From NCBI GenBank assembly GCA_965242965.1, contig OZ251518.1, positions 5,152,001-5,216,000 on the forward strand: a DNA stretch of 64,000 bases, read 5' to 3'. Position 1 is the stretch's first letter; every line of letters starts with the position of its first letter. This DNA comes from Candidatus Poribacteria bacterium (GTDB taxonomy: Bacteria; Poribacteria; WGA-4E; WGA-3G). The position numbers and the translations under genes are program-made. Below the pieces are notes generated by a model. It did no database searches and was not told the DNA's origin. It worked only from the letters and a program-made list of their open reading frames with translations. This document shows, piece by piece, positions 25,667 through 62,023 of the stretch.

Positions 25667-26866
25667 TTATTCTCTCCTTCTTTCTTTGAGCTCCGGTTTG
25701 AGACGCATGGCTTTCTCCAGCTCTGCGATGGCCTCTTCATGTTTGCCGAGTTTTGCCTTCGTCACGCCGCGATTACGATATGCCTCAGCAAAATTCGGAT
25801 TGAGCCGCAACGCCTCGTCGTAGTTTGCCAGGGCCTCTTCGGGTTGCTGCAGGCGATTCCAGAGATTGCCTCGGTTGTTGTAGACATTGGCGAGGTTGAG
25901 AAGCGCAACCTTCGACGCACACCGCAGCCGAAGTGCCTCATCGTAAGCAGCAAGAGCCCTTTTCGTTTTGCCGCCCTCCGATAGCAAAAAGCCAAGCGAG
26001 AAAAAGGCGTGCGAGGCAACGGCGTTGATGTGCAATGCCTCTGTTTTCGGCATATCGGTTGGGCTATCTTCCGCTGGTTCTGCCAACCCCGCACCGAATG
26101 CAGGGACGAACTTTTCCTCAAAGTCTTCAATGAGCCGAAAAGTCCATTCCATTACTGAGGCTAACGGATGCTCTCCATCTACTGTATAAGCAAGTTCGAC
26201 GTGCAACGCATGCGCCCACTGATAGTCGTCTTCTGCTAACGCGAGGGGGTTGCCTTGAGAATCTTGCTTGCACTCCGAAATTGTTCCATCACGCCGATGC
26301 ACGAAATCCGTTAATCTCTCAAGCACCTCACTCAGCCAATCATAGTCATCTTCCGAGTAGGGCGGCGTTCCAAGCGTTTCCAATTGAACCGTTTGGACTG
26401 GGGCGGCACCGTCCTGCAATTGCGTCCTGCTCGGCACTATATCAACGAGTAAGGCATTGTCCTCCAATTTTGCAAGGTAGGCGGGTAAGTTATAGCCTTG
26501 CCCAACTATTAACGCCGCATCGGAGGCGGGTTGTGTGCCGGTTAACATTGTCTGAGGGTGTTTCATAACTCCGTTTCGGTATTTATCCCCCCTTGGGGGC
26601 GGGCGAATACCGAGCCCTCTGGCTAAGAAAGACCGGGAGGGCTCTCCTACCGGAAGGTATCGGGCCCACCTCTGTAGTTCGGGATCGCCTGATCCCGAAC
26701 AGTTCAGGATCAGGCGATCCTGAACTATAGGGGGATGCGGTCTGCCAGCAAAACGATGGCGAGGGACAGGCCCTCGCCCTACGTGAAGGGAAGGCGTTTT
26801 TTCACCGTAGCGCGGTGGCCTGTCCCCGCGACGTTGAGCGATATATGAAACACCCTCAGTTAACAT
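25667..26866 (-). CDS. TPR-repeat protein; native start 26548, extended 106 codons by an in-frame MITE
   Basis: C-terminal TPR units (YNNRG..EEALANYDEALRLNP..AYRNRG); MLT start duplicated at 26866 and 26548. Confidence 0.8.
   Translation of the reverse strand: MLTEGVSYIAQRRGDRPPRYGEKTPSLHVGRGPVPRHRFAGRPHPPIVQDRLILNCSGSGDPELQRWARYLPVGEPSRSFLARGLGIRPPPRGDKYRNGVMKHPQTMLTGTQPASDAALIVGQGYNLPAYLAKLEDNALLVDIVPSRTQLQDGAAPVQTVQLETLGTPPYSEDDYDWLSEVLERLTDFVHRRDGTISECKQDSQGNPLALAEDDYQWAHALHVELAYTVDGEHPLASVMEWTFRLIEDFEEKFVPAFGAGLAEPAEDSPTDMPKTEALHINAVASHAFFSLGFLLSEGGKTKRALAAYDEALRLRCASKVALLNLANVYNNRGNLWNRLQQPEEALANYDEALRLNPNFAEAYRNRGVTKAKLGKHEEAIAELEKAMRLKPELKERRRE
26553..26858. mobile_element. MITE-like element (306 bp) with 15-bp TIR and 12-bp target duplication
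   Basis: TGAGGGTGTTTCATA ... TATGAAACACCCTCA flanked by GTTAACATTGTC at 26541-26552 and 26859-26870. Confidence 0.92.
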
Positions 26867-26930
26867 TGTCTACTCCTCACGCATTCCACATTTCTATGCC
26901 CACCGAACAGGCGAATTCAAGGCGGTTAAT

Positions 26931-26960
26931 GGGGGCGGCCATAGATAGCCGTCCCCAAAT
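26931..26960 (-). terminator. Probable terminator hairpin
   Basis: GGGGCGGC/GCCGTCCCC stem just downstream of the stop at 26979. Confidence 0.5.
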
Positions 26961-26978
26961 TGCGCTGACAGATTGCAG

Positions 26979-30182: not shown

Positions 30183-30199
30183 ACGACCTGAACGGAAAA

Positions 30200-32234: not shown

Positions 32235-32475
32235 TTAGGGTGTTTCATAAATCCGTGTCGGCGTGCCATCCCGGTCTCGAATTCATCGTAGGGCGAGGGC
32301 CTGTCCCTCGCCATCGTGCGTGCCCGCGCACCCCAACGCTCGCGGGGGAAACCCGCTCGGATGCACGTGTGGTATCCGAGGGCCCCCGCGCTACGGGCAG
32401 AGAAAAGCCCTACGGGAAAATCGAGACCGGGAGGTCTCTCCTACCGGGAAAACATCAATATATGAAACACCCTCA
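32235..32475. mobile_element. MITE-like TIR shell with REP cargo
   Basis: TTAGGGTGTTTCATA ... TATGAAACACCCTCA enclosing REP A, B-variant and C. Confidence 0.8.
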
Positions 32476-33769: not shown

Positions 33770-34098
33770 GCGTGGCGAGGGACAGGCCCTCGCCCTACGA
33801 TGTCGGTTAGATCAGGGTGTTTCATAACCCCGTTTCGGTATTTATTCTGCCTTGGAGGGAGGGCGAATACCGGAAGGCATTGAGCCCATCTCTGTAGTTC
33901 GGGAGCGCCTGATCCCGAACGGGTCAGGATCAGGCGATCCTGACCTACAGGGGTGATGCGGTCTGACAGTCAAACGATGGCGAGGGACAGGCCCTCGCCC
34001 TACGGTGTCAGTTCGGTTGGTTGGCGAGGGACAGGCCCTCGCCCTACGATGGCGGTGTGGTTTGCGGCGTGGCGAGGGACAGGCCCTCGCCCTACGGC
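33770..34098. repeat. REP A/D cluster containing a lone MITE left end at 33812
   Basis: Four REP A copies, D pair and TCAGGGTGTTTCATAACCCCGTTTCGG. Confidence 0.85.
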
Positions 34099-37621: not shown

Positions 37622-37640
37622 TGTGTCACGGATACCTAAT

Positions 37641-38184
37641 TGAGGGTGTTTCATATCTCGATATCTTCCCGGTAGGAGAGACCTCCTGGTCTCGATGTTC
37701 CCGTAGCGCGGGGGCCTGTCCCCCGCGATGGCTCAAGAACCGTTTTTTTTATCGTAGCGCGGGGGCCTGTCCCCCGCGATCTCCATAGTCAAGTGTTAGC
37801 GTTTTAGGTCCTATGGACCTTAGGGATAGCGAGGGACAGGCCCTCGCCCTACGGTGGATGGGGGCGATTTCTTAGTCATGCCCGTAGCGCGGGGGCCTGT
37901 CCCCCGCGCGCTCTCAATCGCTGCGGAAAACGCCCGCAACCCAGAGACCCCGGATGTTTGCTGCTCAGCCCGGTGCATGGCGAGGGACAGGCCCTCGCCC
38001 TACGGTGAAAGCGGCACTCAAGCATGGCGAGGGAAACCCTCTCGCATGCGCGTGTGGCATGCGAGGGCCCAAGCCCTACGTGAAGGAAAGGCGTTTTTTT
38101 CACGGTAGCGCGGGGCCCTCGGATGCCACACGCGCATCCGAGCGGGTTTCACCGCGACGTTGAGCGATTTAGGAAACACCCTCA
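37641..38184. mobile_element. MITE-like TIR shell with REP cargo
   Basis: TGAGGGTGTTTCATA ... TAGGAAACACCCTCA enclosing C, B, A and variant palindromes. Confidence 0.85.
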
Positions 38185-39161: not shown

Positions 39162-39413
39162 TGAGGGTGTTTCATAACTCCGTTTCGGCAGTTATCCCCC
39201 TTGGGGAGCGCGCTTCGGGCCCACCTCTGTAGTTTGTGATCGCCTAATCACAAACGGGTCAGGATCAGGCGATCCTGAACTACAGGGGGGATGCGGTCTG
39301 CTAGCAAAACGCGTGGCGAGGGACAGGCCCTCGCCCTACGTGAAGGTGAGGCGTTTTTTATCGTAGCACGTGGTCTGTCCCCGCGACGTTGAGCGAAATA
39401 TGAAACATCCTCA
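39162..39413. mobile_element. MITE-like TIR shell with REP cargo
   Basis: Both ends and interior closely resemble 26553-26858. Confidence 0.88.
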
Positions 39414-46862: not shown

Positions 46863-46870
46863 AAATTAAT

Positions 46871-47426
46871 TGAGGGTGTTTCATAACTCAAGAAACTGTC
46901 CGGTTACCGTAGCGCGGGGGACAGGCCCCCGCGAGCGTCCCGTAGGAGAGACCGCCCGGTCTCAATGCAACACTCTAAACCTTATTAAGGTCCTACGGAC
47001 CTTGATAGGGTGAAGCACGTGTTTCTATAGACATTTAGGTCCTACGGACCTAAAAGAGCGGTTCGGTGGACCGCAGCCTGGCGAGGGGAACCCTCTCGCA
47101 TGCGCGTGTGGCATGCGAGGGCCCTCGCCCTACGGTGAAAGGGGGCCGTTCTGCGGCCAAGAAACCGTCCGGTTACCGTAGCGCGGGGGCCTGTCCCCCG
47201 CGATCTCCATCGTCACGATGAGTGTTTCCCCTTCTGTAGTTCGGGAGCGCCCGCTCCCGAACGGGTCAGGATCAGGCGATCCTGAACTACAGCGGTGAGG
47301 CGGTCTGCCAGCCAAACGCATGGCGAGGGACAGGTTTTCCCACCGCCCTACGTGAAGAGTCGGCGTTTTTTACCGTAGCGCGGGGCATGTCACCGTTAAC
47401 GTTGAGCGATTTATGAAACACCCTCA
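46871..47426. mobile_element. MITE-like TIR shell with REP cargo
   Basis: AAATTAATTGAGGGTGTTTCATAA ... TTATGAAACACCCTCAATTAATTT (perfect 24-bp inversion including flanks). Confidence 0.88.
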
Positions 47427-47500
47427 ATTAATTTGACAAATTTCGTTTTTATGTGGTATCATTTAAATGTAGACGAATTTTCCCACAAAAGGAGAACGAT

Positions 47501-49017: not shown

Positions 49018-49235
49018 AAAACCCAAAACGATTTGGAATTACGCTACAATCTCAACGTAATTCCAAAATCTCCGCGATGGAGGCAAACATGCTTAACTTT
49101 TTTAGTAGTCTCTTTTGATTTTCATCTTCTCAAACTAGACGCTAATACCTATTCAGAGGGTGCATAGGGAAACGACTTTCGTAAAAAATGGAAAAATTTT
49201 TAATTTCCCGAAAATAGTACCATAATGATGTTAGT

Positions 49236-49686
49236 TGAGGGGGGGGTCATATTTCGAGGCGTTCGGTAGGAGAGACCTTCTGGTCTCGATTTCTTCCTTG
49301 TAGGCGAGACCTCCTGGTCTCGATGCGCCGGTAGGCATCGGGCCCACCTCTGTAGTTCGGGAGCGCCCGCTCCCGAACAGGTCAGAATCAGGCGATCCTG
49401 ACCTACAGGGTCTGGCGCACGAACGATGGCGAGGGAAACCCGCTCGCATGCGCGTGTGGCATGGCGAGGGACAGGCCCTCGCCCTACGTGAAGGGACGGC
49501 GTTTTTTTTATCGTAGCGCGGGGGCCTGTCCCCCGCGAACGTTGGAGTGCACGAACGATGGCGAGGGACAGGCCCTCGCCCTACGTGAGGGGAGGCGTTT
49601 TTTATCGTAGCGCGGGGCCTCGGATGCCACACGCACACCCGAGCGGGTTTCCCCCGCGACGTTGAGCGATTTATGAAACACCCTGA
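49236..49686. mobile_element. MITE-like TIR shell (degenerate left end) with REP cargo
   Basis: TGAGGGGGGGGTCATA ... TATGAAACACCCTGA. Confidence 0.8.
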
Positions 49687-49718
49687 ATTAACAAACTACG
49701 CAATATGGAGGAATTCAA

Positions 49719-50162
49719 ATGACTTTGACAAAGGTTACCGTTCCCCAGAAGCATGATATGATTCTGCCCCGACTCAGACTGATGTCTGATGGACAAGGAT
49801 ACGGCATAAAGCAGATGGAAGAAGCTGTCATCGCAGATCTCGCGTTATCCGTTGAGCAGACGGAAATGCGGGTTGGCTCCGGGCAGCAGAAGCAGGTTTA
49901 CAATCGGATTAGTTATAGCAACACCGATTGCAAACACGCGGGTTATATTGAGCCCATTGAGAATAAACAGTGGCGAATCACGCCACTGGGACTGGAGGCT
50001 TACGAACTCCTTGAAGAATTGGAAACACAAGGACGTAGTGACGAGTCTATTCCACTTCTTCGCGAAATGGCCAAACCCAAGCACAATTTTATGGGCTCGC
50101 CGATAGGTGCTGTGACTGTGAAGGAGCTTAAACGGCTCCTTGGCGGTGCGACTTCGGGTTAG
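49719..50162 (+). CDS. Mrr N-terminal winged-helix domain protein, no nuclease domain
   Basis: VP----ILP-L-LMSDG, SGQ---YNRISY, AGYI, WRIT-LG. Confidence 0.75.
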   Translation: MTLTKVTVPQKHDMILPRLRLMSDGQGYGIKQMEEAVIADLALSVEQTEMRVGSGQQKQVYNRISYSNTDCKHAGYIEPIENKQWRITPLGLEAYELLEELETQGRSDESIPLLREMAKPKHNFMGSPIGAVTVKELKRLLGGATSG

Positions 50163-50287
50163 GATAGGAGCCTGATCCGCTTGACTCTATACTTCCTGCG
50201 GATGTAAGGCGAGGTCTTTTGCTAGTTCAAACTCGGCAAGGCACAAGGCTTTGCCCTACAGCCCAAATCAGGACGAAAAAAATAAAT

Positions 50288-50316
50288 TTGACAATTAATC
50301 GAAAATATGGTATCAT
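50288..50316 (+). promoter_or_regulatory. Sigma70 promoter copy P1
   Basis: TTGACA-17-TATCAT inside AAATTTGACAA..TTGTCAAATTT inverted repeat. Confidence 0.75.
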
Positions 50317-50579
50317 ATTAACAAGTTGTCAAATTTTCCCAACAACTCTACTCAAACGGCAGAGACATTTCTCCCCTTTCTGTAGTTTGCGATCGCCTGA
50401 TCGCAAACAAGTCAAGATCTGGCGATCTTGACTTACAGGGAGGGCACGTGTTTTCGATTTTCAGGAGCGACATCCAAACCGAAAACTAAATGACTCTGAC
50501 CAAAATTTTAAACTTGCTAAACATTCGGGATTATGTTAAAATTTAGCATAATCCCGAAATCTTCGCGATGGAGGCACGC

Positions 50580-50855
50580 ATGTTTAACTTTTTAACAGGT
50601 CTCTTTCGTAAAGAGACACCTGAACCCCCAACCACAGAGGCTCTCTTGAACCGTATCCCTTTCCACCTCGTGGAGGATTGGAAACCCGGCGACAGAGTGA
50701 GTTTCGCTGGCAGCCCTGGGAAGATTTATGATATTGTTCCTCATGAGATTCCCTCAGGGGAAAAGATCGCATCTATTGGTGTGATGTATGACGATGAGCC
50801 GGGTGTCATTCGGCTTGTTGAATCTGATTTTCACTTACTCAAATTTGAAGGCTGA
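50580..50855 (+). CDS. Small hypothetical protein (SH3/KOW-like beta pattern)
   Basis: GGAGG RBS, own promoter TTGCTA-17-TAAAAT; WKPGDRV...GKI pattern. Confidence 0.7.
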   Translation: MFNFLTGLFRKETPEPPTTEALLNRIPFHLVEDWKPGDRVSFAGSPGKIYDIVPHEIPSGEKIASIGVMYDDEPGVIRLVESDFHLLKFEG

Positions 50856-50973
50856 TATCGACTCAGCGGCCGCGTAAGGGAACAGCTTCCCTCGGTTGCT
50901 ATACTGGAGAGAGGGTTTGCTGTTTTGACAGCACAGTGACCCTCCCCACCACGATAACGCTCAAAGGATTGAA

Positions 50974-51861
50974 ATGAAACAAGATCAAGTCATCATCTGG
51001 AAAGAGTTATCGCAGCAGATTGCCGCTTGCGCTTTTTCCAAAGCAGACTTAAGAACGCTTTGTGAAAGACTACAAGAGGCGAGTTACGAAGCAGCGAATG
51101 AGGAAATAAGCCATTACGCGCCGCCGGATCGGCCTGAAGAAGAAATCCTCAAAGATAAAGAATTGCTCAAATCGGGATTTGAACTCAAGGTAACCGTGAG
51201 CGGCATGAACGACGAGACGGTTTTTGGCACAATTCCTATGGTGTTTGACTCTGCCCGTTTTCCGGAAAAAATTAAGAGTCTTTATATCAACAGTAGCCAA
51301 GAGTTAAGAAATCTACACGACTGGGCTCCGCGGAATCGTTTTGAGTTGCTCTTAGATTTCACCAAACCCGCACGCATCAATTTCTTACTGGCACCCGCTG
51401 GGCCTACTCCGAACGCAAGCAAGATTCTTGTTACCGGACTGAATTCTGCTTGGGTTAATGGGGTCTATAGGGACGTTGTGGACTTCGTTAGGGGACGAAA
51501 AACGCATCGCCGACTGCTCCACAGAAGTGGGGTTTATGATTTGCTCCTCCTCTGCGGAGGCATCCCCTTCGCCTTTTCGATCTCCGCAAAACTCTCCGGC
51601 ATCATGAACACGCTGTTCGGCGAACTCTCCGGACTCCTGCACAGTGCCGCACAAGTCTATGTCTTCTTCATCGCACTCAGTTTGTTCCGAATCGTGTTTG
51701 ACTACGCCCGATGGATCTTCCCACTCGTAGAATATCAAGACCCGAGCGGAACAGTTATCAAACATAGAATCTTTTTGGGAGGACTCATCCTCGGCGTTCT
51801 CGGAAATTTCATCCATGATCTTCTCAAAATTCTCCCAGGCTTCCTGACCCCAAATCCCTAA
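50974..51861 (+). CDS. Hypothetical protein with three C-terminal transmembrane helices
   Basis: 295-aa ORF with hydrophobic C-terminal segments. Confidence 0.75.
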   Translation: MKQDQVIIWKELSQQIAACAFSKADLRTLCERLQEASYEAANEEISHYAPPDRPEEEILKDKELLKSGFELKVTVSGMNDETVFGTIPMVFDSARFPEKIKSLYINSSQELRNLHDWAPRNRFELLLDFTKPARINFLLAPAGPTPNASKILVTGLNSAWVNGVYRDVVDFVRGRKTHRRLLHRSGVYDLLLLCGGIPFAFSISAKLSGIMNTLFGELSGLLHSAAQVYVFFIALSLFRIVFDYARWIFPLVEYQDPSGTVIKHRIFLGGLILGVLGNFIHDLLKILPGFLTPNP

Positions 51862-51886
51862 AAATCCGTTATTTGTAAAAATAAAT

Positions 51887-52046
51887 TTGACAATTAATCC
51901 AAAATATGGTATCATATTCAACACATTGTCAAATTTTTCAAAAAAACGGAGACCAGCGTGAAACAACGACAAACGCATCATCGAAACCGATGAATGTCTC
52001 TAAAATAAAAAATAAATTTGACAATTAACCCATTTTGTGGCATCAT
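51887..52046 (+). promoter_or_regulatory. Tandem promoter copies P2 and P3 upstream of the DUF1156 gene
   Basis: TTGACA-17-TATCAT (51887-51915) and TTGACA-17-CATCAT (52018-52046). Confidence 0.75.
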
Positions 52047-52087
52047 ATTAACACGTTTTCCACTATTCTACCCAAACGGAGACTCGC

Positions 52088-54694
52088 GTGAGCAACGACA
52101 AACGCATCATTGAGATTGAATTTCCAGTCGATGAGGTTCGCGGATCAGGGGGCCAGGAAATCGCAGGGATCCACACGTGGTTCGCGCGCAGACCTCTTAG
52201 TCCCTCGCGCGGCACGGCATACGCTGCCCTCTCAAATCCTCTTCAAAATGATGCGTCGAAAGACTTATACAGACAAGCGTTCATTGTCGAACTTTGCAAG
52301 TGGGAAAACGCGAGGAAACCACTCTGGATCGACGAGGCTCGTCGCGACATCTTGGATGCCCACGATGGGCAGCCGCCCAAAGTGCTTGACCCTTTCGGTG
52401 GTGGCGGTTCAATTCCCCTTGAAGCGCAGCGGCTCGGCTGCGAAACTCACTCGTGCGATCTCAACCCCGTTGCAGTGCTCATTCAGAAGTGCACGCTTGA
52501 ATACCCGCAAAAATACGGCAAACGTCTTTCTGACGATGTCAAGAAGTGGGGAGAGCAAATCATTGCACAAGTGACAGAAGAACTGGAGCAGTTTTATCCA
52601 AAGGAGCCGGACGGTTCACACCGCTATGCCACTATTTGGGCGCGCACCCTTCCGTGCCAGAACCTCTCTTGCAATACCGTCATCCCGCTTGTGAGGAAGT
52701 ATTGGCTTGCGAAGGGCAGAATCGCCCTTTTCCCCTATGAAGACGATGGACAAATCTCCTTCCGTATCGTCGGCAATGGGTATGAGCCGATCCCTGAAGG
52801 CTTCGACCCAGCTAAAGGGACAGTAGTGCGTGCCAATGTTACTTGCCCCGTTTGCAAAAATACGATTCCTGCGCGAGATACCCATCGCCTATTCCATGAA
52901 GAGGTGGTAAAAGAACGCATCCTTGCCGTGGTTACCTATCATCCGAACGTTGCTGGAAAACGATACCGTCTTTCCACGGATGCCGATATGGAGGTTCTCG
53001 CGTCTGCCAAAATCCGTCTCTCTGAAAAACGCCAGTCTCTCCATGAGCAATGGGGAATAGATCCGGTGCCAGATGAAGAGACTCCTGCTGGGACAGGGGG
53101 TGCTTCAGTACAGGTCCGCCTATACAATCTAAACACCTATGGAGCTCTCTTCAACCCGCAGCAGCAACTCGCTCTTATTACCTTTACGGAGAAGATACGG
53201 AACGCACATACGGAGATGCTCGGGCAGGATTATGACCCTGACTATGCGCGTGCTGTTACAACCTACTTGGGCATGTGGCTGAATCGAATAGCCCAGGATT
53301 TGTCCAATCTTTGTAGATGGAGGGACGATACTCAAGGGGTTGTTGGATTGTTCGGTATGCAGGCACTCTTCATAGTTTGGGATTATGGAGATGCCAATCC
53401 GCTGCTGATTGCCACCAATAAATTACAAACCATTCTCAGGCCGCTCAAGCCTCTGTCCGAGATGCGCGCGAAGCCCGTTGTTGTCGAACAAGCATCGGCT
53501 GCCAACCTTCCCTATCAAGGTGACACCTTTGATGCGGTGCTCACGGACCCTCCCTATTACAATAACATCGAATATGCGTATCTCTCAGAGTTCTTCTACG
53601 TCTGGCTCAAAAGGAGCGTGCAGAACCTGCATCCTGAACTCTTCCAGACAGACATGACTCCCAAGAAAGACGAAATTGTCGCCTACCCTCACCTTGATGG
53701 ACAGGTGAAGGCGACCGAACGGTTTGAAAAAGGATTATCAAGAGCCTTTGCCGAAGTGCATCGGGTTTTGAAACCGAACGGCATCACCGTAATCGTCTAT
53801 GCGCACAAGTCGAAAGAGGGATGGGAAACCCTGATTAACGCGCTGCTTGACTCAGGACTCGTCATTACGGCCGCGTGGCCTCTTGAGACAGAGCAGAAAG
53901 GAAATAAATTCGGTGGGACCCGGAGGGCACTCTTAGCAACATCTATCTATATGGTTGCCCGGAAAGCGGAGCGCGAAGCATTCGGGCTGTATCAAGAGGT
54001 TCGCGCGAACGTTGAGGAGCACCTCAAGAAGCGATACGCGGAATTGTGGGAGTCTGGACTCTCTGGAGCAAACCTGTTCATCGCAACAATCGGAAGTGCC
54101 CTTCAGATATTCGGCAGGTATCAGGAAGTGATTGACGGTAACGACAACACTATTCGTGCGGATAAGATGCTTCAGGATATCCGGGAAATCGTCGCGACTT
54201 GTGCGATGGAGCAAGTTATCCCGAATGCGACTGCGTTGACGCGCTTCTACCTATATTGGCGGCAGGCGCACGGGGAAAAACGTGCAACGTTTGACGCAGC
54301 GAATAACTTGGCTTCTATCTCCGCCGGTCTTAATTTGACAGAGGAGTTAGGAAGAGGCGGCGCGGTTCAAAGAGAGGGCACGTTTGTTCGGGTTTTGGGC
54401 CCGCATGAGCGCGAATTTACGGACATCCCCACTAGCGACGAACTCGTCGACATCTTACACCATGCTCTGTGGTTTTGGCGGAAGGGCAAACACGAAGCAA
54501 TGATTCAACACCTCGCTAGAGGACAGGTAGGTTTAAACGAACCTATCTATACCCTCGCCCAGGCGGTGAGTTTAACTCTACCGCTTGAGAGTCAGGAACG
54601 GCGGTGGCTTGACGGGTGGCTTGCCGTTAAAGAGGTCATTAAGGAAGAGATTAAATCTACCTTAGAAGAGGCGAGACAGACGCGAATCGCTTGA
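52088..54694 (+). CDS. DUF1156 domain adenine DNA methyltransferase with Zn ribbon
   Basis: IHTWFARRPL, LDPFGGGGSIPLEA, DLNPVA, CPVC, TDPPYY. Confidence 0.92.
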   Translation: MSNDKRIIEIEFPVDEVRGSGGQEIAGIHTWFARRPLSPSRGTAYAALSNPLQNDASKDLYRQAFIVELCKWENARKPLWIDEARRDILDAHDGQPPKVLDPFGGGGSIPLEAQRLGCETHSCDLNPVAVLIQKCTLEYPQKYGKRLSDDVKKWGEQIIAQVTEELEQFYPKEPDGSHRYATIWARTLPCQNLSCNTVIPLVRKYWLAKGRIALFPYEDDGQISFRIVGNGYEPIPEGFDPAKGTVVRANVTCPVCKNTIPARDTHRLFHEEVVKERILAVVTYHPNVAGKRYRLSTDADMEVLASAKIRLSEKRQSLHEQWGIDPVPDEETPAGTGGASVQVRLYNLNTYGALFNPQQQLALITFTEKIRNAHTEMLGQDYDPDYARAVTTYLGMWLNRIAQDLSNLCRWRDDTQGVVGLFGMQALFIVWDYGDANPLLIATNKLQTILRPLKPLSEMRAKPVVVEQASAANLPYQGDTFDAVLTDPPYYNNIEYAYLSEFFYVWLKRSVQNLHPELFQTDMTPKKDEIVAYPHLDGQVKATERFEKGLSRAFAEVHRVLKPNGITVIVYAHKSKEGWETLINALLDSGLVITAAWPLETEQKGNKFGGTRRALLATSIYMVARKAEREAFGLYQEVRANVEEHLKKRYAELWESGLSGANLFIATIGSALQIFGRYQEVIDGNDNTIRADKMLQDIREIVATCAMEQVIPNATALTRFYLYWRQAHGEKRATFDAANNLASISAGLNLTEELGRGGAVQREGTFVRVLGPHEREFTDIPTSDELVDILHHALWFWRKGKHEAMIQHLARGQVGLNEPIYTLAQAVSLTLPLESQERRWLDGWLAVKEVIKEEIKSTLEEARQTRIA

Positions 54695-54701
54695 AAGGAG
54701 A

Positions 54702-57224
54702 ATGCATCCTATGGCAGGATTTGAGACAATCGCCAAGCCGCATAACGATATTCTACGCGGCAATTTCACCTTGGATACCTACGCAGCAAACCTCGGCGAC
54801 GTAGTGAAAGGGGAAGGACCTGCTGAATATCGGCACCCCAAGCGGTTTTTCCAGAAAACCTATATGACTGAAGGGTTAAAGACGTTGCTCCGTGGCGTGG
54901 AACGCCGCGTGAAAGGCCGCGGCGGCGATGCCGTTATTCAATTGCAAACCCCTTTCGGTGGCGGCAAAACCCATACCCTCATCACGTTGTTCCACAAAGC
55001 GAACGAGTGGAAAGCGAAGCCGGTCGTCATTGTTGGCACCGAGATGGAGGCGGATCACACGTTGTGGGGCCAGATGGAAGCGCAGCTGACCGGGGAGATT
55101 CAGGAGTTTCAAGGGCATCGGGCACCAGGGAGCGCGAAAATCTCCGAACTCTTCAATCAGGTTGGGAAACCTATCGTCCTCTTAATGGACGAGGTGCTGA
55201 ACTATTTGACGGCTGCTACGGCCGTGGACGTTGGCAGAAGCACTTTAGCAAAGCAGGCACTGCGGTTTGTGCATAATTTAACCGAATCGGTGAGTGCATC
55301 CAACAACGTCACCTTGATTGCGACGCGGCAGTCGGGCGAGCACGAGGATTACGGCGAGAGAGAGCTCTCAAATGATTTCAAGCAGCTGCTGGACAGAATG
55401 GCTCGGGTCGGAACACCGGTGGCTGATTCCGAAATCGCGCACATCATTCGGAGTCGGTTGTTCTCTGAAGTGAACGAATCGGCAGCCAAACGGATTGTCC
55501 GTGAATTTGCGAATTACGCCGATAGGGAGTCCATTCTGCCGCCCGGTGAGCAGAAATCGGAGTATCGCGAGCGGTTCGTCGCAAGCTATCCGTTTCAACC
55601 CGAGGTCATCGATGTGTTGTATCATCGGTGGGGCAGTTTCCCGAATTTTCAACGGACGCGCGGCGTGCTGCGTCTCCTCTCGCGTGTCGTGCAACGTTCC
55701 CTGCGCAAGAATCTGCCCTACATCACCCTCGCCGATTTTGACCTGGGCGACGCGGACATCCGTGGCGAACTTTTAAGACATGCGGGTAACGTTTTTAGCA
55801 GCATCATCGCGAACGATATTACGGCTTCCGACGCGGGCGCGAGGTTAGCGGACGAGGCACTGGGAGATGCATTAAAGAATTTGGCATTAAGCACGCGCAC
55901 GGCGACTGCTATTTTCCTTTATTCCTTCACCGGTGGACAGGAACGCGGTGCGACGTTGGATCAGATTAAGCGGAGCACTGCATATTCCGATACGCCATCG
56001 GCGGTGATAGATTCGGCGATAACGCAGCTGAACACGCACCTCTCTTACCTCCGCACCGAAAGTGGGAAGTCCTATTTCGATACGCAACCCAACTTACAGC
56101 GGCTTGTGCAGATTCGGATGGAAAATGTGGAGGATGAAGAAGTTGCATCGCGTGCCGAAGCACAGATTAAGAAGAGTTTCACAACCAGATCGGGGGCTAA
56201 GATGAAGACGTTCATCGCACCGCGAAAAGGGACAGATATTCCGGAAACGCCGGATCTGAAACTGATTGTGCTTCCTCAGCGGGACGACGAATTCTGCCGA
56301 AACCTGCTAGAGATGCGCGGTGAAAGCCCGCGTATCTATCGGAATACGCTTTTCTTCCTCGTTCCGCTTTCCGGTAGCGCGGAGAAGTTGGGTACCGAAG
56401 TGAAGCGCGTCCTCGCTTACGAAGCGATTGGTAATGATAACTCCCTGAATTTATCCGATGAGCAACAGAAGGAAGTCAAGACCCAGTTACGGCAGTCTGG
56501 CGGCGCGCTCAATGATGCGGTGTCCCAAGATTATCGCACCCTTCTGATTCCGACGCGAGAAGGCTTTCGTGAGGAAGACCTCGGGTTGCCTGCGCACGGA
56601 ATGAACACGCCGTTGGATGAGAAAGTCTATGAGACGCTCCGCGTAAAGGGAGAGATTTTGTCCAGCATCGGACCGCGAAACATCGCCATCCGTTTTTTGA
56701 AAGACAACGAAGCGGTGTCAACGGCGCAACTCTATTCGTCCGGTCTTCGCACGCCGGGTGAGACGCGCGTGCTCCGTGAGGCGTGGATAACCGGGATCCG
56801 CGATGGCGTGGTGCAGGGAGAATTTGGCATCGGCGAGAAGATGGGAGGCGAACTCATCCAGCGTGCCTTCAATCAAGACCCGAGAACGGTAACGCTTAGC
56901 GATAACGAGGTAATTATCCATCCATCGCGTTGGAAAGAGATTGAGCCGGAACCGAAACCGAAACCACAGGAAACGCAGGAGGAAATTATTGAGCCGCAGC
57001 AGCGAAAAATTGAGCCGCAGCAGCCGCGGAAATCAGTTCGTCTCCGGTTTACCGTGCCGAGTGGAAAGGTAAGTCAGATGTCCCAACGCGTCAACGCGTT
57101 GCAGTCTCAATTCAAAAACATTCGGATTGAATTGACAACCAGCGATGGCGAAATCTCCGATGCGGACTACGAAAAACTTAAAGCAGATTTCCTTGAATCA
57201 GGGATTGAGGTGGAGGAAGTCTAG
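54702..57224 (+). CDS. DUF499 family AAA+ ATPase
   Basis: AKPH-D, LQTPFGGGKTH, LMDE, SYPF-P, FQRTRGVLR. Confidence 0.92.
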   Translation: MHPMAGFETIAKPHNDILRGNFTLDTYAANLGDVVKGEGPAEYRHPKRFFQKTYMTEGLKTLLRGVERRVKGRGGDAVIQLQTPFGGGKTHTLITLFHKANEWKAKPVVIVGTEMEADHTLWGQMEAQLTGEIQEFQGHRAPGSAKISELFNQVGKPIVLLMDEVLNYLTAATAVDVGRSTLAKQALRFVHNLTESVSASNNVTLIATRQSGEHEDYGERELSNDFKQLLDRMARVGTPVADSEIAHIIRSRLFSEVNESAAKRIVREFANYADRESILPPGEQKSEYRERFVASYPFQPEVIDVLYHRWGSFPNFQRTRGVLRLLSRVVQRSLRKNLPYITLADFDLGDADIRGELLRHAGNVFSSIIANDITASDAGARLADEALGDALKNLALSTRTATAIFLYSFTGGQERGATLDQIKRSTAYSDTPSAVIDSAITQLNTHLSYLRTESGKSYFDTQPNLQRLVQIRMENVEDEEVASRAEAQIKKSFTTRSGAKMKTFIAPRKGTDIPETPDLKLIVLPQRDDEFCRNLLEMRGESPRIYRNTLFFLVPLSGSAEKLGTEVKRVLAYEAIGNDNSLNLSDEQQKEVKTQLRQSGGALNDAVSQDYRTLLIPTREGFREEDLGLPAHGMNTPLDEKVYETLRVKGEILSSIGPRNIAIRFLKDNEAVSTAQLYSSGLRTPGETRVLREAWITGIRDGVVQGEFGIGEKMGGELIQRAFNQDPRTVTLSDNEVIIHPSRWKEIEPEPKPKPQETQEEIIEPQQRKIEPQQPRKSVRLRFTVPSGKVSQMSQRVNALQSQFKNIRIELTTSDGEISDADYEKLKADFLESGIEVEEV

Positions 57225-57228: not shown

Positions 57229-58167
57229 TCAAGGCAAATAACCCTCCACCGCCTCCACCACCTGCGCAACCGTAATGCCGTCAATCACCGCGCAACTGCC
57301 AGCACCACATCCCCCAGGATGCCGCCCCGGATGACACGGATTACATCCTAACTGCAACCCACTCTGCACGACAGTGTGCTTTTCTCCGTAAGGACCGCTT
57401 CGATGGTGGTTCGTCGAACCGAAAAGCGCGACGACAGGTGTCTTCACAGCGGCGGCAATGTGCATCGGACCGGTGTCATTCCCAATGTAAACATCGCATG
57501 CCGCGATTAAGGCGGTAAGTTCCCGCAGATTTTTTGTTTTGACGAGAATAGGTGAGGGATGCATCATGTCCGCTACCTGCGCTTGGAGTTCGCGTTCATC
57601 CGGTCCCGCGAAGAGGAGGATTGCGGCACCGAATTTTTCTGATAGGATTGTGGCGAGTTGCGCGTATTTTTGCGCGTCCCAGAGTTTGTATGTCCAATTG
57701 CCACCGGGATGGATGCCGATGCGGCATCGAGACCGGGAGGTCTCTCCTACCGATTCGGTGAGTTGGAGGTGAGGATGTGCATCGGTTATGTCAACGCCGT
57801 GACGTTGTAGCACCTCTAGGTATCGGGTCACGGCGTGACGATTTCCGCTGCTATGTCCCATTCCCCAATGTTTCGCGCCGATGCATCTCGCCACAAGGCT
57901 GTCGCGGAGGTTGACAACAATGTCGAATTTTTCGCGGCGCAAGGTTTTGATGAGGCGCAGCCGGCCTCTCCACCCGGCGTGTTCATCTCGGTTGTCGTAA
58001 ATGTGAACGGCATCGATTTGCGGTTCGGCGGTGAAGAGTGCCGCCGCCCGCGGTCCGACGAGGAAAGTGATGTGGGCATTAGGGAAGTGTCGCCGCAGGG
58101 GTTGGATAACGGCAGTGGAAAGCACAGCATCGCCGATGAAGGTGAAACTGAAGATGAGGATTTTCAT
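57229..58167 (-). CDS. Glycosyltransferase family 9 with in-frame REP insertion
   Basis: IGDAVLST, IGIHPG, NDTGPMHIAAA, LFGST. Confidence 0.9.
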   Translation of the reverse strand: MKILIFSFTFIGDAVLSTAVIQPLRRHFPNAHITFLVGPRAAALFTAEPQIDAVHIYDNRDEHAGWRGRLRLIKTLRREKFDIVVNLRDSLVARCIGAKHWGMGHSSGNRHAVTRYLEVLQRHGVDITDAHPHLQLTESVGETSRSRCRIGIHPGGNWTYKLWDAQKYAQLATILSEKFGAAILLFAGPDERELQAQVADMMHPSPILVKTKNLRELTALIAACDVYIGNDTGPMHIAAAVKTPVVALFGSTNHHRSGPYGEKHTVVQSGLQLGCNPCHPGRHPGGCGAGSCAVIDGITVAQVVEAVEGYLP

Positions 58168-58204
58168 TTGATATTCATAGTTTGCGAGTGCTTGAAGGTC
58201 TGGG

Positions 58205-58775
58205 AGCATCGAGACCGGGAGGACTCGCCTACCGGGAAGACATTGAGAACCGTAGCGCGGGGGCCTGTCCCCCGCGATCGCTCGATCTGCGCGAAAACCG
58301 CACGCCAGCCCAGGCCGTTTCCTCGACCGAGGCATGGCGAGGGACAGGCCCTCGCCCTACGGGCCATGCGGCGATTTCTGAGTTGTTACCGTAGCGCGGG
58401 GGCCCTCGGATGCCATACGCGCATCCGAGCGGGTTTCCCCCGCGATCTCTCAACCGCTGCGGAAAACGCCCACAATCCAGAGACCCCGGCTGTTTGTTGC
58501 TCAGACCGACGCATGGCGAGGGACAGGCCCTCGCCCTACGTGCCATGCAGCGATATCTGAGTTGTTACCGTAGCGCGGGGGCCTGTCCCCCGCGATCGCT
58601 CGATCTGCGCGAAAACCGCACGCCAGCCCAGGCCGTTTCCTCGACCGAGGCATGGCGAGGGACAGGCCCTCGCCCTACGTGCCATGCGGCGATTTCTGAG
58701 TTGTTACCGTAGCGCGGGGGCCCTCGGATGCCATCCGCGCAGCCGAGCGGGTTTCCCCCGCGATCTCTCAACCGA
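58205..58775. repeat. REP cluster with ~200-bp direct repeats (period 318)
   Basis: B-spacer-A-spacer-B' unit starting at 58252 and 58570. Confidence 0.9.
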
Positions 58776-58788
58776 TTTTGCCTCCGAT

Positions 58789-60030
58789 TCAGACAACCGA
58801 AGCCTCAATCAAATCCACTGCTGTCGTCAATCCATCTTCTGCGTTGAGTTTTTCGCCGAGGGTTTGCGCGCGTTCTGTCATCGTAGAGTCAGCGAGGACA
58901 GTTTCAATTCGTTTTGCTAAACGAGCCGGTGTCATCCTGCGGCGCGGGAGGCTCTTCGGTGCGACACCGAGTTCAGCGAGCCGCTTCGCCCAATAAAACT
59001 GGTCTGCGTGATGCGGCACGACTATCGATGGCAGTTTCGCGCGACACACCGATGCTGTCGTCCCTGCGCCGCCGTGGTGGACGACGCAACTCGCTCGCGG
59101 GAACAGCCACCGATGCGGCACATAGTCGGTGAAAAGGATGTCCGGTACCTCAGCGTCTAAGCCGAGTTGTCCCCAGCCGGATTGGACGATGGCGCGTTGT
59201 CCCGTCTTTTTGATGGCGGCGATCAGCAGTTCGGTTGTCTCTTTGGCGTTTGTGCCGCCCATTGAACCGAACGTGACAATGACAGGCGGCGCGCCGTCCT
59301 CCAAAAAATCGAGCAGTTCTGATGGCGGCGTGTAGGCAGGCTCATCTAAAAACCAAACCCCCGTGAATTCATGTTTTTCAGGAAAATCGGCGGGCGGCGG
59401 ACAAAGCGTCGGCGAAGCAGCCATGAGGTTCAACTGCGGTGAGTATATCCCATCCAGCGCGAAATTCCACCTCGGCTCACCACCGATAGACGCGATAAAG
59501 CGGTTAAAATAGGCATCTAAGGCGCGAGTCAGCCGGAACTCTACTAACTTCCACAAACACTGATTGAGCCACGGGCTGAAATCTGGAAAAATATAGGGCG
59601 CGTGAAACCGAGACGGCACAAACCCAGGACAATAACTATGTGTGAACCACGGCAAACCGAGACGAATAGCGGCTTCTTGTCCCGGAATATCCCCGGAATG
59701 ACAGAGTGCCAAGTCATAGCCTTTCATCGCCGAGAGGCAGTCACGATACCACTTCTCGCCGCCTCTCAAAATCCCCTCTTTCACGGTGACGAGGAGTGGC
59801 CTGAGCGGGTCGCGCATGGGGATGATGTCGTCCATCGCTTTATGAAAATGCCTCAATTCAAAAGCGATGCCGACTTCGCGGTAGTCCGCGCCGATGCGTT
59901 GAATACGTTCCTTGTAAAGCGCGGGCGCGCAGACGCGCACCTCATGCCCGCGGCTCAGCAGGCGTTTGACTACTGCCAAGATTGGATAAACGTCACCGGT
60001 TGTGCCCCAGGCCGCTACGACGATTTTCAT
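58789..60030 (-). CDS. Glycosyltransferase family 1 (sterol/rhamnosyl-transferase-like)
   Basis: GTTGDVYP, VTFGS, VPHRWLFP, VHHGGAGTT, DQFYWA. Confidence 0.92.
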   Translation of the reverse strand: MKIVVAAWGTTGDVYPILAVVKRLLSRGHEVRVCAPALYKERIQRIGADYREVGIAFELRHFHKAMDDIIPMRDPLRPLLVTVKEGILRGGEKWYRDCLSAMKGYDLALCHSGDIPGQEAAIRLGLPWFTHSYCPGFVPSRFHAPYIFPDFSPWLNQCLWKLVEFRLTRALDAYFNRFIASIGGEPRWNFALDGIYSPQLNLMAASPTLCPPPADFPEKHEFTGVWFLDEPAYTPPSELLDFLEDGAPPVIVTFGSMGGTNAKETTELLIAAIKKTGQRAIVQSGWGQLGLDAEVPDILFTDYVPHRWLFPRASCVVHHGGAGTTASVCRAKLPSIVVPHHADQFYWAKRLAELGVAPKSLPRRRMTPARLAKRIETVLADSTMTERAQTLGEKLNAEDGLTTAVDLIEASVV

Positions 60031-60047
60031 AAGTGTTCTTTTGCTCC

Positions 60048-60280
60048 AGCATGGCGAGGGACAGGTTTTCCCTTCCTTGCCCTACGCATTAAGGTGAAGG
60101 TCTTCTATTGCACCAGCATGGCGAGGGACAGGCCCTCGCCCTACGCATTAAGGGAAAGGTTTTCTATTGCGCCGGCATGGCGAGGGACAGGTTTTCCCTT
60201 CCTTGCCCTACGCATTAAGGGAAAGGTTTTCTATTGCGCGAGCATGGCGAGGGACAGGCCCTCGCCCTACGCATTAAAGG
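60048..60280. repeat. Four tandem REP A units, alternating two variants
   Basis: GCATGGCGAGGGACAGG..GCCCTACGCATTAA repeated four times. Confidence 0.9.
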
Positions 60281-61310
60281 ATGGAGAGATTTCCTCGATT
60301 TTGTTCCAGACTTTCTCGATGGGAAGTTTTTTGGTGCATTCCCAGTCGATTTTGCACTTATGCGCGCTGCAAGGCCAGCACGGCATGTCCCGGCGCACAA
60401 TAGATGCATGCTCACTCAAGGGATGCCACGCCACGTGGTCCGTCGGACCGAAGATGGCCACCGTCGGCACGGCTAACGCCGCGGCGAGGTGCATCGGGCC
60501 GGAATCGTTGCAAACGACGAGGTTGCAACACCGCAGCAGTGCCGCTAATTCGCGAATTGAAGGCGGCGCGTAAACGACAGCGCGCGTTTGCATCGTTTCC
60601 TGAATCTCGCGCGCCAACGCCATCTCATCGGGTCCGTGCAGAATCAAGACCTCGGCGTTGTAGTGGCGCGCCAGTCTATCTGCGAGTTCGGCGTAGTGCT
60701 TCTCCGGCCACCGTTTATCAAACGAACTCCCCCCAGGGTGAATGCCGATGAGAAACCTATCCGCGCTGATGCCCCATGTTTTTAGACGCGTTTTTAGAAA
60801 GACTTCGGCGTTGCCAATTTCATCGGGATTGAGATGAAAAACGAGCCGCCGCACCCCATCGCCGTTGCAAATGAGACGCACCAGTTCCAAGTTCCTATCC
60901 ACCTCGTGTGTTTCGCCTTTTCGGTATGAACCGCGCCACGCATGCGTGAGCGTGGATTTAAACCGCTTTTGATACCTGCCTAATCGATACCGCGCGCCGG
61001 TGAGAAACGCGACAAAGTGCGGCCACGTCGCTGTCTGCATCGCAACGACAAGTTGAAACCGTTCACGACGAAGGTTCTGATAAAACCGAATCCGCTCGCG
61101 CAAACCACCCCCATCGAAGATGAGAATCCTGTCAACATCAGGGTTGCCGTGTAGCACCGGGGCATTGAGCGGCCGTGCCAACACCGTTATCTCGGCATCG
61201 GGGTAGTTTTGGCGGAGCAGCGCGATTGCGGGGGTTGAATTCAGCAAATCGCCGATGCCATCGGTGCGGATGATGAGTATCTTTTTGATACCTGGCAGCG
61301 TCAATTGCAT
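60267..61310 (-). CDS. Glycosyltransferase family 9
   Basis: GIGDLL-STP, IGIHPGG, NDSGPMHLAAA, IFGPT; AGGAG before ATG 61310. Confidence 0.92.
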   Translation of the reverse strand: MQLTLPGIKKILIIRTDGIGDLLNSTPAIALLRQNYPDAEITVLARPLNAPVLHGNPDVDRILIFDGGGLRERIRFYQNLRRERFQLVVAMQTATWPHFVAFLTGARYRLGRYQKRFKSTLTHAWRGSYRKGETHEVDRNLELVRLICNGDGVRRLVFHLNPDEIGNAEVFLKTRLKTWGISADRFLIGIHPGGSSFDKRWPEKHYAELADRLARHYNAEVLILHGPDEMALAREIQETMQTRAVVYAPPSIRELAALLRCCNLVVCNDSGPMHLAAALAVPTVAIFGPTDHVAWHPLSEHASIVRRDMPCWPCSAHKCKIDWECTKKLPIEKVWNKIEEISPSFNA

Positions 61311-61337
61311 GCCGTTTCTCCTGCAATTACTGTAGCA

Positions 61338-62023
61338 TAGGGTGGATAAAAATGCAAATGCGTTAAGCCCCTTCATCGTAGGGCCTGGGCCCTCGCATGC
61401 CACGCGTGCATGCGAGCGGGTTCCCCTCGCCATGCGTTTTGCTGTCAGCCTGCATCACCTCTGTAGGTCAGGAGCGCCTGCTCCTGACCTGTTTGTGATC
61501 AGGCGATCACAAACTACAGAGGTGGGCCCAATGCCTTCCAGTAGGAGAGACCTCCTGGTCTCGATGCAATAGGACGGCGCGCCTCACCCCTGTAGGTCAG
61601 GATCGCCTGATCCTGATCCGTTTGTGATCAGGCGATCACAAACTACAGAGAGGGGACCTAAAACGCCATCTCTTGACGATGGAGATCGCGGGGGACAGGC
61701 CCCCGCGCTACGGGAAAAAACGCTTCCCCTTCACCGTAGGGCGAGGGCCTGTCCCTCGCCATCGTTCGGGCCCTCCAACGCTCGCGGGGGACAGGCCCCG
61801 CGCTACGGGAAAAAACGCCCCTTCACCGTAGGGCGAGGGCCTGTCCCTCGCCATCGTTCGGGCCCTCCAACGCTCGCGGGGGACAGGCCCCCGCACTACG
61901 GGCACATCGAGACCAGAGGTATCTCCTACGGGGATGCATCGAGACCAGGAGGTCTCTCCTACCGGGGAGAATTGAGACCCGAGGTCTCTCCTACCGAACG
62001 CATCGAAATATGAAATACCCTCA
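61338..62023. mobile_element. REP cluster in a MITE-like shell (right TIR clear, left degenerate)
   Basis: TATGAAATACCCTCA at right end; A, B, C, D palindromes inside. Confidence 0.72.

Follow-up and report, generated by a model that had tools for sequence, protein, structure and literature searches.

REP-built miniature elements in Candidatus Poribacteria share their termini with a DDE insertion sequence

The window, that is, the whole 64-kb stretch of DNA that was analysed, appears to be part of a REP-rich Candidatus Poribacteria chromosome. A blastn-short map shows 98 REP units in these 64 kb, and of the 83 units assigned to families A, B, C, c and D, 79 have GTAG beside the stem. One survey (PMC3733652) defines GTAG-tagged REPs as short palindromic stem-loops that carry GTAG unpaired on one side, and the class is tied there and in a second paper (PMC2817692) to RAYT transposases. 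A preliminary description of this DNA had placed the units in the REP/RAYT-linked class, which the tag count bears out. A/B and C/c units form inverted doublets and arrays.

The second repeat of the window is a terminal 15-mer, TGAGGGTGTTTCATA, which has 14 matches with up to three mismatches against an expectation of 1.13 (maximum of 4 in shuffled controls; 0 of 100 shuffles attain 14). Thirteen matches carry no or one mismatch, and all of these lie between 26.5 and 62 kb; the fourteenth, at 59841 with three mismatches, falls within the ORF 58789–60030 and is probably due to chance. The 15-mers form five exact +/− pairs (the elements starting at 26553, 32235, 37641, 39162 and 46871; Table 1) and a sixth in which the − end at 49686 is joined by a degenerate left partner of 16 nt with a G-run at 49237, recognisable as a terminal inverted repeat (TIR) despite its decay because its subterminal sequence matches X-type ends. 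All six neighbouring pairs face outwards, + on the left and − on the right, and two ends, + at 33812 and − at 62023, are unpaired. The preliminary description had located inverted termini at all these positions correctly, but its left end near 61338 was not borne out: the candidate agrees with the 15-mer at only 9 of 15 positions and lies within the beginning of the ORF 60267–61433. Five right ends share ACGTTGAGCGA, as had been described for five ends, and a few subterminal end types (L1, R1 and X) are combined differently among the elements.

Table 1. Repeat elements and TIR-free REP clusters of the window
Feature	Coordinates	Strand	Composition and flanks
Family-1 MITE, 306 bp	26553..26858	+	L1 end, inserted D-variant REP, C/c doublet, A/B doublet, R1 end
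Direct repeat GTTAACATTGTC, perfect, 12 bp	26541-26552 and 26859-26870		Flanks MITE 26553..26858
241-bp element, mismatched ends	32235..32475	+	L1-like left end (TTAGGG variant), X-type right end (TIR and D unit); interior A, B unit with nested E palindrome, D; no flanking duplication
Truncated family-1 MITE	33812..34004	+	L1 left end, C/c doublet, A unit; no right end; extra A units outside at 33774-33799 and 34023-34096
544-bp element, mismatched ends	37641..38184	+	X-type left end, R1 right end (CCTA variant); no flanking duplication
Family-1 MITE, 252 bp, shortest full copy	39162..39413	+	L1, C/c, A/B, R1; no flanking duplication
556-bp element	46871..47426	+	Left end with 19 nt in common with L1, then 320-bp REP array; right half (47190-47426) family-1 backbone with R1 end
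450-bp element	49237..49686	+	Degenerate X-type left end (G-run), two D units, family-1 backbone with A/B doublet tandemly duplicated and nested E palindromes, R1 end (TCAGGG variant); no flanking duplication
One-ended REP array, 13 units	61368..62023	+	X-type right end (D, D, TIR); no convincing left TIR
REP cluster without TIR	5554..6363	.	B, C, F, A units
REP cluster without TIR	10943..11295	.	A and B units alternate, BIME/REPIN-like
REP cluster without TIR	21935..22349	.	D, A, c/C doublet, F
REP cluster without TIR	58202..58774	.	D, then B, A and E units alternating
Tandem A-type REP array without TIR	60036..60281	.	

Bounded by paired TIRs, the window elements are non-coding and 241–556 bp long, which is the size and the terminal organization of MITEs. 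No Pfam family matched any of the nine ORFs that overlap them, and they have no coding capacity. The shortest full copy, 39162..39413, is predicted to fold strongly as single-stranded DNA (−61.9 kcal/mol, z = −6.5). A search of the whole window with Rfam gathering thresholds matched no family; a sub-threshold match to DUF3800-VI (58740–58774, E 0.03) is regarded as chance. Gene starts often lie shortly downstream of right ends. TIRs enclose 37 of the 98 REP units. Another 42 lie in TIR-free arrays, including every cluster of the first 26 kb, which suggests that REP spread is independent of the TIR-bounded shells. C/c and A/B doublets are also found free-standing outside them.

A genome scan for the TIR motif yielded at least 30 loci (L numbers below), with 22 distinct Poribacteria loci being used; the 30 listed comprise 23 from Candidatus Poribacteria MAGs and seven single matches in other taxa. 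Alignments of the elements (A1 and A2) reveal two related MITE backbones, both composed of REP doublets. Family 1, about 250 bp long, is ordered as TIR, C/c doublet, A/B doublet and TIR, and family X as TIR, D unit, B units, F units and others, followed by a D unit and the terminal TIR. In A1, full-length family-1 copies from three loci align over their entire length. Either backbone is present in two genomes at non-matching loci (A1, A2), which indicates that REPs travel inside the MITE. The element 37641..38184 and L020:10001–10865, for instance, have module order and spacers in common, the left 176 bp of the former (37637–37812) being 88.6% identical to L020:9997–10169. A synteny search of the window against the 30 loci returned repeat-to-repeat matches only, without shared flanks. 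Among the loci listed, REP families A–F occur together with REP-filled MITEs only at L020/L021, besides the window. A + and a − TIR lying 3 kb apart at L020, considered as a possible autonomous insertion sequence (IS), turned out to belong to two MITEs flanking an MnmE-like gene.

Differences between copies consist of module-sized insertions, nestings and duplications. In alignment A1, a discrete insertion of a 40-bp REP into the MITE distinguishes the copy at 26553 from that at 33812; the inserted unit adjoins TACCG, which mimics its own tag end. The same alignment shows palindromes nested in REP loops and tandem duplication of a REP doublet. The unit map confirms the earlier view of the interiors as mosaics of REP-type units. 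The further picture of constant ends with interchangeable cargo has to be modified: the end motif is real, but most elements share long backbones and not their ends alone.

The preliminary description had postulated a DDE enzyme behind the TIRs and proposed a search for an autonomous IS with the same termini. Such an IS, with a length of 1107–1114 bp and the TIR at both ends, is found in related Poribacteria at L013, L024, L026, L027 and L028. Each IS holds a single transposase ORF, and the 332-aa frame is open in the L026, L027 and L028 copies. The terminal 18–20 bp are common to IS and MITEs; the right terminal 20 nt of 46871..47426 recur without change at the terminus of the L027 IS. Identity between the TIRs and the IS extends to 16–20 bp and that of the MITE bodies stops at this point, which argues that the bodies are not IS-derived. 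L004 contains a 685-bp internal-deletion derivative of the IS, and L001, L005, L014 and L023 contain truncated remnants. In 13 of the 22 distinct Poribacteria loci, DNA coding for the transposase lies directly next to the TIR. The 64-kb window holds neither a copy of the IS nor any similarity to its transposase, the IS being known from related Poribacteria MAGs. Several short-read MAG contigs break exactly at the TIR.

The transposases match Pfam PF13612 (DDE_Tnp_1_3) with 33.7 and 39.2 bits, above the cut-off of 27. Their best NCBIfam match is IS982 (NF033520), with scores of 55.0 and 58.7 bits that lie far under the cut-off of 130, so that the assignment is loose. The closest annotated plasmid genes are likewise IS982 family transposases (23–25% identity, 83% query coverage). 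Homologues at E≤1e-5 number 1136; among the 120 of these that are listed, most have 331–335 aa and the sole name is 'hypothetical protein' (n=3). The IS is probably a distinct, as yet nameless subgroup, distantly IS982-like. The termini had been thought to recall IS5 or IS1182 loosely; the NCBIfam and plasmid matches of the partner point to IS982 instead.

Fourteen TIR pairs, eight REP-filled and six IS-type, were inspected for flanking repeats, which agree at 6/6 positions in four pairs, 5/6 in one, 12/12 in one and 12/13 in one. Among IS-type pairs the repeat is 6/6 in L027 and L028, 5/6 in L026, and 4/6 or 3/6 in L004, L024 and L013. Among REP-filled pairs it is 6/6 at the window element 46871..47426, which lies between perfect copies of ATTAAT (46865–46870 and 47427–47432), and at L020 10001; 12/12 and 12/13 in two family-1 copies, neither of which a 6-bp stagger accounts for; and absent in four, including 39162..39413, canonical family-1 copy though it is. 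The 6-bp duplications are AT-rich (ATTAAT, GTTAAT, AATAAC and ATTAAA), and their occurrence at IS copies as well as at long REP-filled elements supports the reading of the latter as DDE-mobilized MITEs. Indeed, perfect duplications beside elements of 556 bp (window) and 865 bp (L020) suggest that each of these moved, or was at least inserted, as one unit between its TIRs. Two other readings, a 4-bp TTAA/YTAR target as in IS5 and TNA for the initial three bases, were abandoned in view of the 6-bp duplications at IS copies.

Target duplication had been attributed to the window elements, and two of the six pairs show it (12 bp at 26553–26858, 6 bp at 46871–47426) whereas four do not. The combinatorial pairing of end types, also proposed at the outset, exists in that different combinations are seen; however, duplications accompany none of the three mismatched-end elements, a small comparison of three elements with five, and there is no sign of these elements transposing as such. 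They are probably juxtaposed or recombined fragments.

The search for RAYT genes that the preliminary description had also proposed returned none in the window or the 30 loci. Pfam found no RAYT among 45 large window ORFs. With E. coli RayT as the tblastn query, the best match anywhere in the window or the 30 loci, together ~430 kb drawn from several genomes, had an E of 0.08. A crude screen of the loci for HUH motifs retained three candidates, none of which resembled a Y1 transposase by eye. No REPtron, that is, a RAYT flanked by REPs, occurs in the ~430 kb searched, which is no evidence of genome-wide absence given genomes of ~5 Mb. The mechanism of REP mobility therefore rests on analogy with the literature, by which the REP mover would presumably be a RAYT-type HUH enzyme.

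We consider it likely, at roughly three chances in four, that the elements represent two related MITE families with REP-built bodies that are mobilized in trans by the 1.11-kb, distantly IS982-like IS, while the REPs also spread independently. The 332-aa DDE transposase of the IS would be supplied in trans to both families; it would bind the TIRs, cut the target with a 6-bp stagger and move any DNA between two correctly oriented ends. Three processes account for the differences among copies. Single REP units insert into them, as in the 40-bp case above; palindromes come to lie within REP loops and doublets are tandemly duplicated, both of which A1 shows; and pieces of different MITEs have probably recombined or come to lie side by side in REP-rich intergenic DNA, which would leave mismatched ends without duplications.

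A stronger form of the two-tier system, in which the DDE shell is the main disperser and reshuffler of REP modules, possibly in place of a RAYT, and cargo exchange is intrinsic to it, for instance by a transposase that pairs any two TIRs and packages the REP array between them, is considerably less probable. It would agree with the presence of REP-laden backbones at different loci in two genomes, with the perfect 6-bp duplications of the 556- and 865-bp REP-filled elements, with the joint occurrence of families A–F and REP-filled MITEs only in the window and L020/L021 among the loci listed, and with the failure to find a RAYT in the window or the 30 loci. However, the ~430 kb covered say little about genomes of ~5 Mb, 42 of the 98 REP units lie in TIR-free arrays, with no TIR at the clusters of the first 26 kb, and C/c and A/B doublets stand free outside shells. 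A single REP unit entered a MITE copy alone, that is, in the direction opposite to ferrying, and the elements with 'combinatorial' ends carry no target duplication (0/3). Of the ferrying proposed in the preliminary description, carriage of REPs inside the backbones is thus retained, alongside movement of REPs into and outside them.

It is improbable that the pairs are not elements at all but solo TIRs, left by decayed IS or MITE copies, that border REP-rich permissive spacers. Solo ends do exist (33812 and 62023), as do the IS remnants in L001, L005, L014 and L023, and four of six window pairs without duplications and three elements with mismatched end types would fit. Against this, all six neighbouring pairs face outwards, three loci have full-length family-1 copies that can be aligned from one terminus to the other, and perfect 6- and 12-bp and near-perfect 13-bp duplications hug four REP-filled elements. 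Solo TIRs probably explain the three mismatched-end elements and not the whole set. That the 15-mer serves the host as a regulatory or structural motif (an operator or another class of palindromic repeat) unrelated to transposition, as its right ends shortly upstream of gene starts might suggest, can be dismissed as very improbable, being contradicted by its position at both termini of a transposase-bearing IS (five loci) with target duplications, by short-read contigs that break at it as is typical of a dispersed repeat, and by Rfam, which has no matching family.

One may speculate, at low probability, that two unrelated transposition systems are physically coupled: the IS982-like DDE enzyme would move REP-bodied MITEs, a second and RAYT-independent route for REPs, and REP insertion and REP-mediated recombination would keep producing variants of the MITEs. 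If the source genome had no RAYT at all, these REPs would have no active vehicle other than the DDE shell. The understanding of REP spread and of mosaic clustering is still incomplete, and small repeats are commonly assigned either to MITEs or to REPs. Here they are interlocked, doublets forming the MITE body and single REPs inserting into it, so that carriage and invasion can be separated by comparing copies. These repeats also fragment short-read Poribacteria assemblies, and the abundant transposase family (1136 homologues) could be named and serve as a marker for these sponge symbionts. A literature search, with subscription papers outside its coverage, found no description of these Poribacteria elements; the MITE/IS pair is new and the REP-built body is unusual.

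With the IS982 family the partner IS shares a length of ~1.1 kb, one DDE ORF, a DDE_Tnp_1_3 match above the cut-off and IS982 as best NCBIfam and plasmid matches. Duplications of the family measure 3–9 bp according to ISfinder, a range that includes the 6 bp observed here. The partner differs in its scores (55–59 bits against a cut-off of 130) and its 23–25% identity; IS982 ends are of AC type, and those described here begin with TGAGGG. BOX elements of Streptococcus pneumoniae have the modular structure boxA-boxB(n)-boxC, with internal modules that vary in number and order between constant ends, and resemble the present elements as modular small repeats with constant ends and variable interior modules. 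To our knowledge, no autonomous IS matches BOX, and its modules are not GTAG REPs.

Bacterial MITEs known to be cross-mobilized by DDE IS include Correia/NEMIS, RUP, Nezha and R0/R2 of Pseudomonas fluorescens, the last with inverted repeats equal to those of a resident IS (PMC3184786 and PMC3733652). The elements described here are alike in being short and non-coding, with IS-identical TIRs, target duplications at some copies, intergenic positions beside genes and strong predicted structure. They differ in that the body did not arise from the IS by deletion but consists of GTAG REP doublets that are also free in the genome, in that copies vary by whole REP modules, and in the 12–13-bp duplications of two of them.

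The REP units themselves resemble the GTAG REPs, REPINs and BIMEs of the literature, being stem-loops of 20–40 bp in which GTAG is left unpaired on one side, present as several families per genome, in pairs of opposite orientation and in mosaic clusters, some of them intragenic (PMC3733652 and PMC2817692). They differ in belonging to Poribacteria, a phylum not mentioned in the accessible part of the survey PMC3733652, in the enclosure of 37 of 98 units within DDE-type TIRs, and in the lack of a REPtron or RAYT in the ~430 kb searched. The same part of the survey describes the GTAG-15 dimers of Anabaena variabilis and the CGTC-1 dimers of Halothiobacillus neapolitanus as embedded in long palindromic sequences, so that in these cases too REP dimers lie regularly inside an unrelated inverted-repeat shell (PMC3733652). 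For those shells, neither a partner transposase nor target duplications were reported, and none was found to be devoid of REPs (PMC3733652), whereas the shell ends described here belong to an identified IS.

The TIR-bounded elements of the window are real and coherent; together with an IS of related genomes they make up a MITE/IS pair that is new but of a known kind, the MITE having an unusual REP-built and REP-invaded body. The 15-bp end motif (TIR; TGAGGGTGTTTCATA) is matched 14 times with at most three mismatches, against a mean of 1.13 in dinucleotide-preserving shuffles, none of 100 of which reached that count. Thirteen of these matches, every one of them within 26.5-62 kb, have no more than one mismatch. 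A three-mismatch match at 59841 falls within an ORF and was set aside as a probable chance occurrence. All six TIR pairs are oriented outwards (Table). Five pair positions given in the preliminary description are exact, and ACGTTGAGCGA is common to five right ends, as it stated; the further left end it placed near 61338 matches, as read by eye, at only 9 of 15 positions and is not accepted.

TIR-bounded elements, solitary ends and TIR-free REP clusters of the window
Feature	Position	Strand	Basis
TIR pair	26553/26858	+/-	motif search
TIR pair	32235/32475	+/-	motif search
TIR pair	37641/38184	+/-	motif search
TIR pair	39162/39413	+/-	motif search
TIR pair	46871/47426	+/-	motif search
TIR pair, degenerate left end	49237/49686	+/-	G-run at 49237; subterminal sequence matches other ends
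Solitary end	33812	+	motif search
Solitary end	62023	-	motif search
TIR-free REP cluster	5554-6363		
TIR-free REP cluster	10943-11295		
TIR-free REP cluster	21935-22349		
TIR-free REP cluster	58202-58774		
TIR-free REP cluster	60036-60281		

A scan of genome contigs with TGAGGGTGTTTCATAWNTC listed at least 30 loci (here numbered L001 to L030). Candidatus Poribacteria MAGs account for 23 of the 30 matches listed; L020 and L021 overlap, which leaves 22 distinct places. The other seven are single matches in unrelated taxa, as expected by chance for a pattern of such length. Among the matches listed, the motif lies directly beside transposase-coding DNA at 13 of these 22 Poribacteria sites. In five of the loci listed, + and - TIRs 1107-1114 bp apart enclose a transposase gene, whose frame is open (~332 aa) in L026, L027 and L028 and broken in L013 and L024; an autonomous IS with the same TIR, as the preliminary description envisaged, thus exists. 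In L001, L005 and L023 the solitary ends belong to truncated IS remnants that include transposase-coding DNA, and the one in L014 is an IS-type end only. In L004 (1715-2399), a 685-bp derivative of the IS has an internal deletion but retains the two TIRs and the transposase's C-terminal half; in contrast to the window's REP-built MITEs, it stands between the IS and a MITE of the classical deletion type. Nine short-read Poribacteria contigs among the matches listed end at or within ~240 bp of a TIR (L002, L003, L008, L009, L010, L018, L019, L029, L030), six of them within a few bases (L002, L003, L009, L010, L019, L030); a dispersed repeat would produce such breaks, and assemblies therefore frequently break at this IS/MITE family.

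The transposase passes Pfam DDE_Tnp_1_3 (33.7 and 39.2 bits against a cut-off of 27). Among NCBIfam models IS982 scores highest (55-59 bits, far below the cut-off of 130), and IS1182 and IS5 score much lower. Four of five plasmid protein matches are IS982 family transposases (23-25% identity over 83% of the query); the fifth, with the best E-value, covers 42% of the query and is named only 'transposase'. At E<=1e-5 the protein database contains 1136 homologues; lengths among the 120 listed range from 273 to 342 aa, mostly 331-335, and the only name among them, on three, is 'hypothetical protein'. Judged by these similarities, the autonomous partner is a distant, unnamed IS982-like element rather than one of the IS5/IS1182 type, with whose termini the preliminary description had loosely compared the ends.

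Fourteen TIR pairs, six from the window and eight from the loci, were examined for flanking target duplications. Perfect AT-rich duplications of 6 bp flank two intact IS copies (AATAAC, ATTAAA), an 865-bp REP-filled element of L020 (GTTAAT) and the 556-bp window element 46871-47426 (ATTAAT), and the L026 IS shows a 5/6 match. Whereas the IS copies and these other elements carry 6 bp, two family-1 MITEs carry 12-13 bp: a perfect 12-bp duplication at 26553-26858 (GTTAACATTGTC, 26541-26552 and 26859-26870) and a 12/13 duplication at L020 12797-13061 (12784-12796 and 13062-13074), which might reflect two successive events or the action of another transposase that cuts with a different stagger. Seven of the 14 pairs show no flanking duplication (window 32235, 37641, 39162 and 49237; L004, L013 and L024). 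Same-family ends go with a duplication in four of five elements, albeit in small numbers, and all three elements with ends of mismatched families (32235, 37641, 49237) have none. The latter are therefore read as products of events between separate insertions, perhaps juxtaposition, deletion or REP-mediated recombination.

Identity between MITEs and IS is limited to the terminal 16-20 bp. The family-1 MITE backbone (L1 end, C/c doublet, A unit, T-run, B unit, R1 end) runs end to end in the elements at window 26553, window 39162 and L020 12797, recurs in the truncated copy at 33812 and forms the right halves of the 46871 and 49237 elements. Its copies differ by module-sized changes: a palindrome ('E' unit) nested in the B loop, a tandem duplication of the A/B doublet and, in one case, a GTAG-tagged D variant of 40 bp that is cleanly inserted in 26553 when this copy is compared with 33812; it adjoins TACCG, a repeat of the unit's own tag end. 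The second, X-type backbone (TIR, D unit at fixed spacing, B, T-run, B, F and so on) is common to window 37641 and L020 10001, which have the same module order and inter-module spacers and unrelated flanks; L020 19768 begins likewise. The shortest full copy, as single-stranded DNA, has a strong predicted fold (-61.9 kcal/mol, z = -6.5). No Rfam family matched, and none of the nine ORFs overlapping the elements had a Pfam match.

Mapping of eight unit motifs over the whole window (blastn-short) located 98 REP-type units (A 24, B 18, C 12, c 9, D 20, E 9, F 6), with A and B, and C and c, forming inverted doublets. GTAG lies immediately 5' of the stem in 79 of the 83 units of families A, B, C, c and D, a tag that, according to PMC3733652 and PMC2817692, defines the GTAG REP superfamily; F units lack it. 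REPs are equally common outside the shells: 37 units lie within the six two-ended shells, 19 within two one-ended arrays and 42 where no TIR is present. In one intergenic region, a larger repeat of ~180 bp occurs twice (5653-5835 and 6033-6213); it is made up of four hairpins of the F type (TTAAGGTCCTAAAGGACCTT-like) that surround TCTATAGA cores. Short tandem repeats of a AAATCTTG-like unit, terminating in AAATCCTGCT, lie at 10943-10980 and 22313-22360 and adjoin two TIR-free clusters. Of the fetched loci, L020/L021 alone contain the REP families in combination, and five isolated D-type matches in L005, L013 and L024 are likely chance.

The preliminary description proposed that a DDE-mobilised MITE ferries and shuffles HUH-type REP modules. 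The DDE/MITE half is well supported by the IS with the same TIRs, its DDE_Tnp_1_3 transposase and the target duplications. Ferrying is supported in a modest sense, as the body of the MITE consists of REP doublets, which consequently travel with it. Its stronger forms are not supported: two backbones account for most copies, so that free interchange of cargo does not apply, and at least one REP got into a MITE on its own. As to the RAYT half of the proposal, a search of the window and the loci, ~430 kb drawn from several genomes, revealed no Y1 transposase.

Self-comparison gives 6,712 bp of repeated DNA in the window. Pfam searches of its 45 large ORFs found no transposase of any kind and an ordinary chromosomal content (GFO/IDH/MocA oxidoreductases, FGE-sulfatase, WD40, PBP1, LexA, glycosyltransferases). 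A defence-like gene run at 42805-57224 (SNF2 helicase with NOV_C domain, 8xMP membrane protein, GmrSD_N, Mrr_N, 868-aa methylase-like protein, DUF499) is interrupted by the MITEs at 46871 and 49237, and G+C falls to 0.46 within it, at 50-52 kb. Two ORFs, one with an HMA domain (40482-41162) and one for an E1-E2 ATPase (41198-42817, beginning at profile position 24), apparently represent a single copper-type P-type ATPase that has been split, perhaps as a pseudogene or through a sequencing error.

No description of these elements was found in the literature searched. D-type GTAG REP units also lie in frame inside four long ORFs, a P-type ATPase, an SNF2/NOV_C helicase and two family-9 glycosyltransferases, without breaking the frames (42104-42155, 45055-45106, 12702-12726, 57726-57751), and contribute peptide stretches such as VGETSRSRC; they resemble the in-frame palindromic elements of Rickettsia. 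For the MITEs themselves, the nearest precedent appears to be the REP dimers embedded in long palindromes that PMC3733652 (section 7) describes in Anabaena variabilis and Halothiobacillus neapolitanus.
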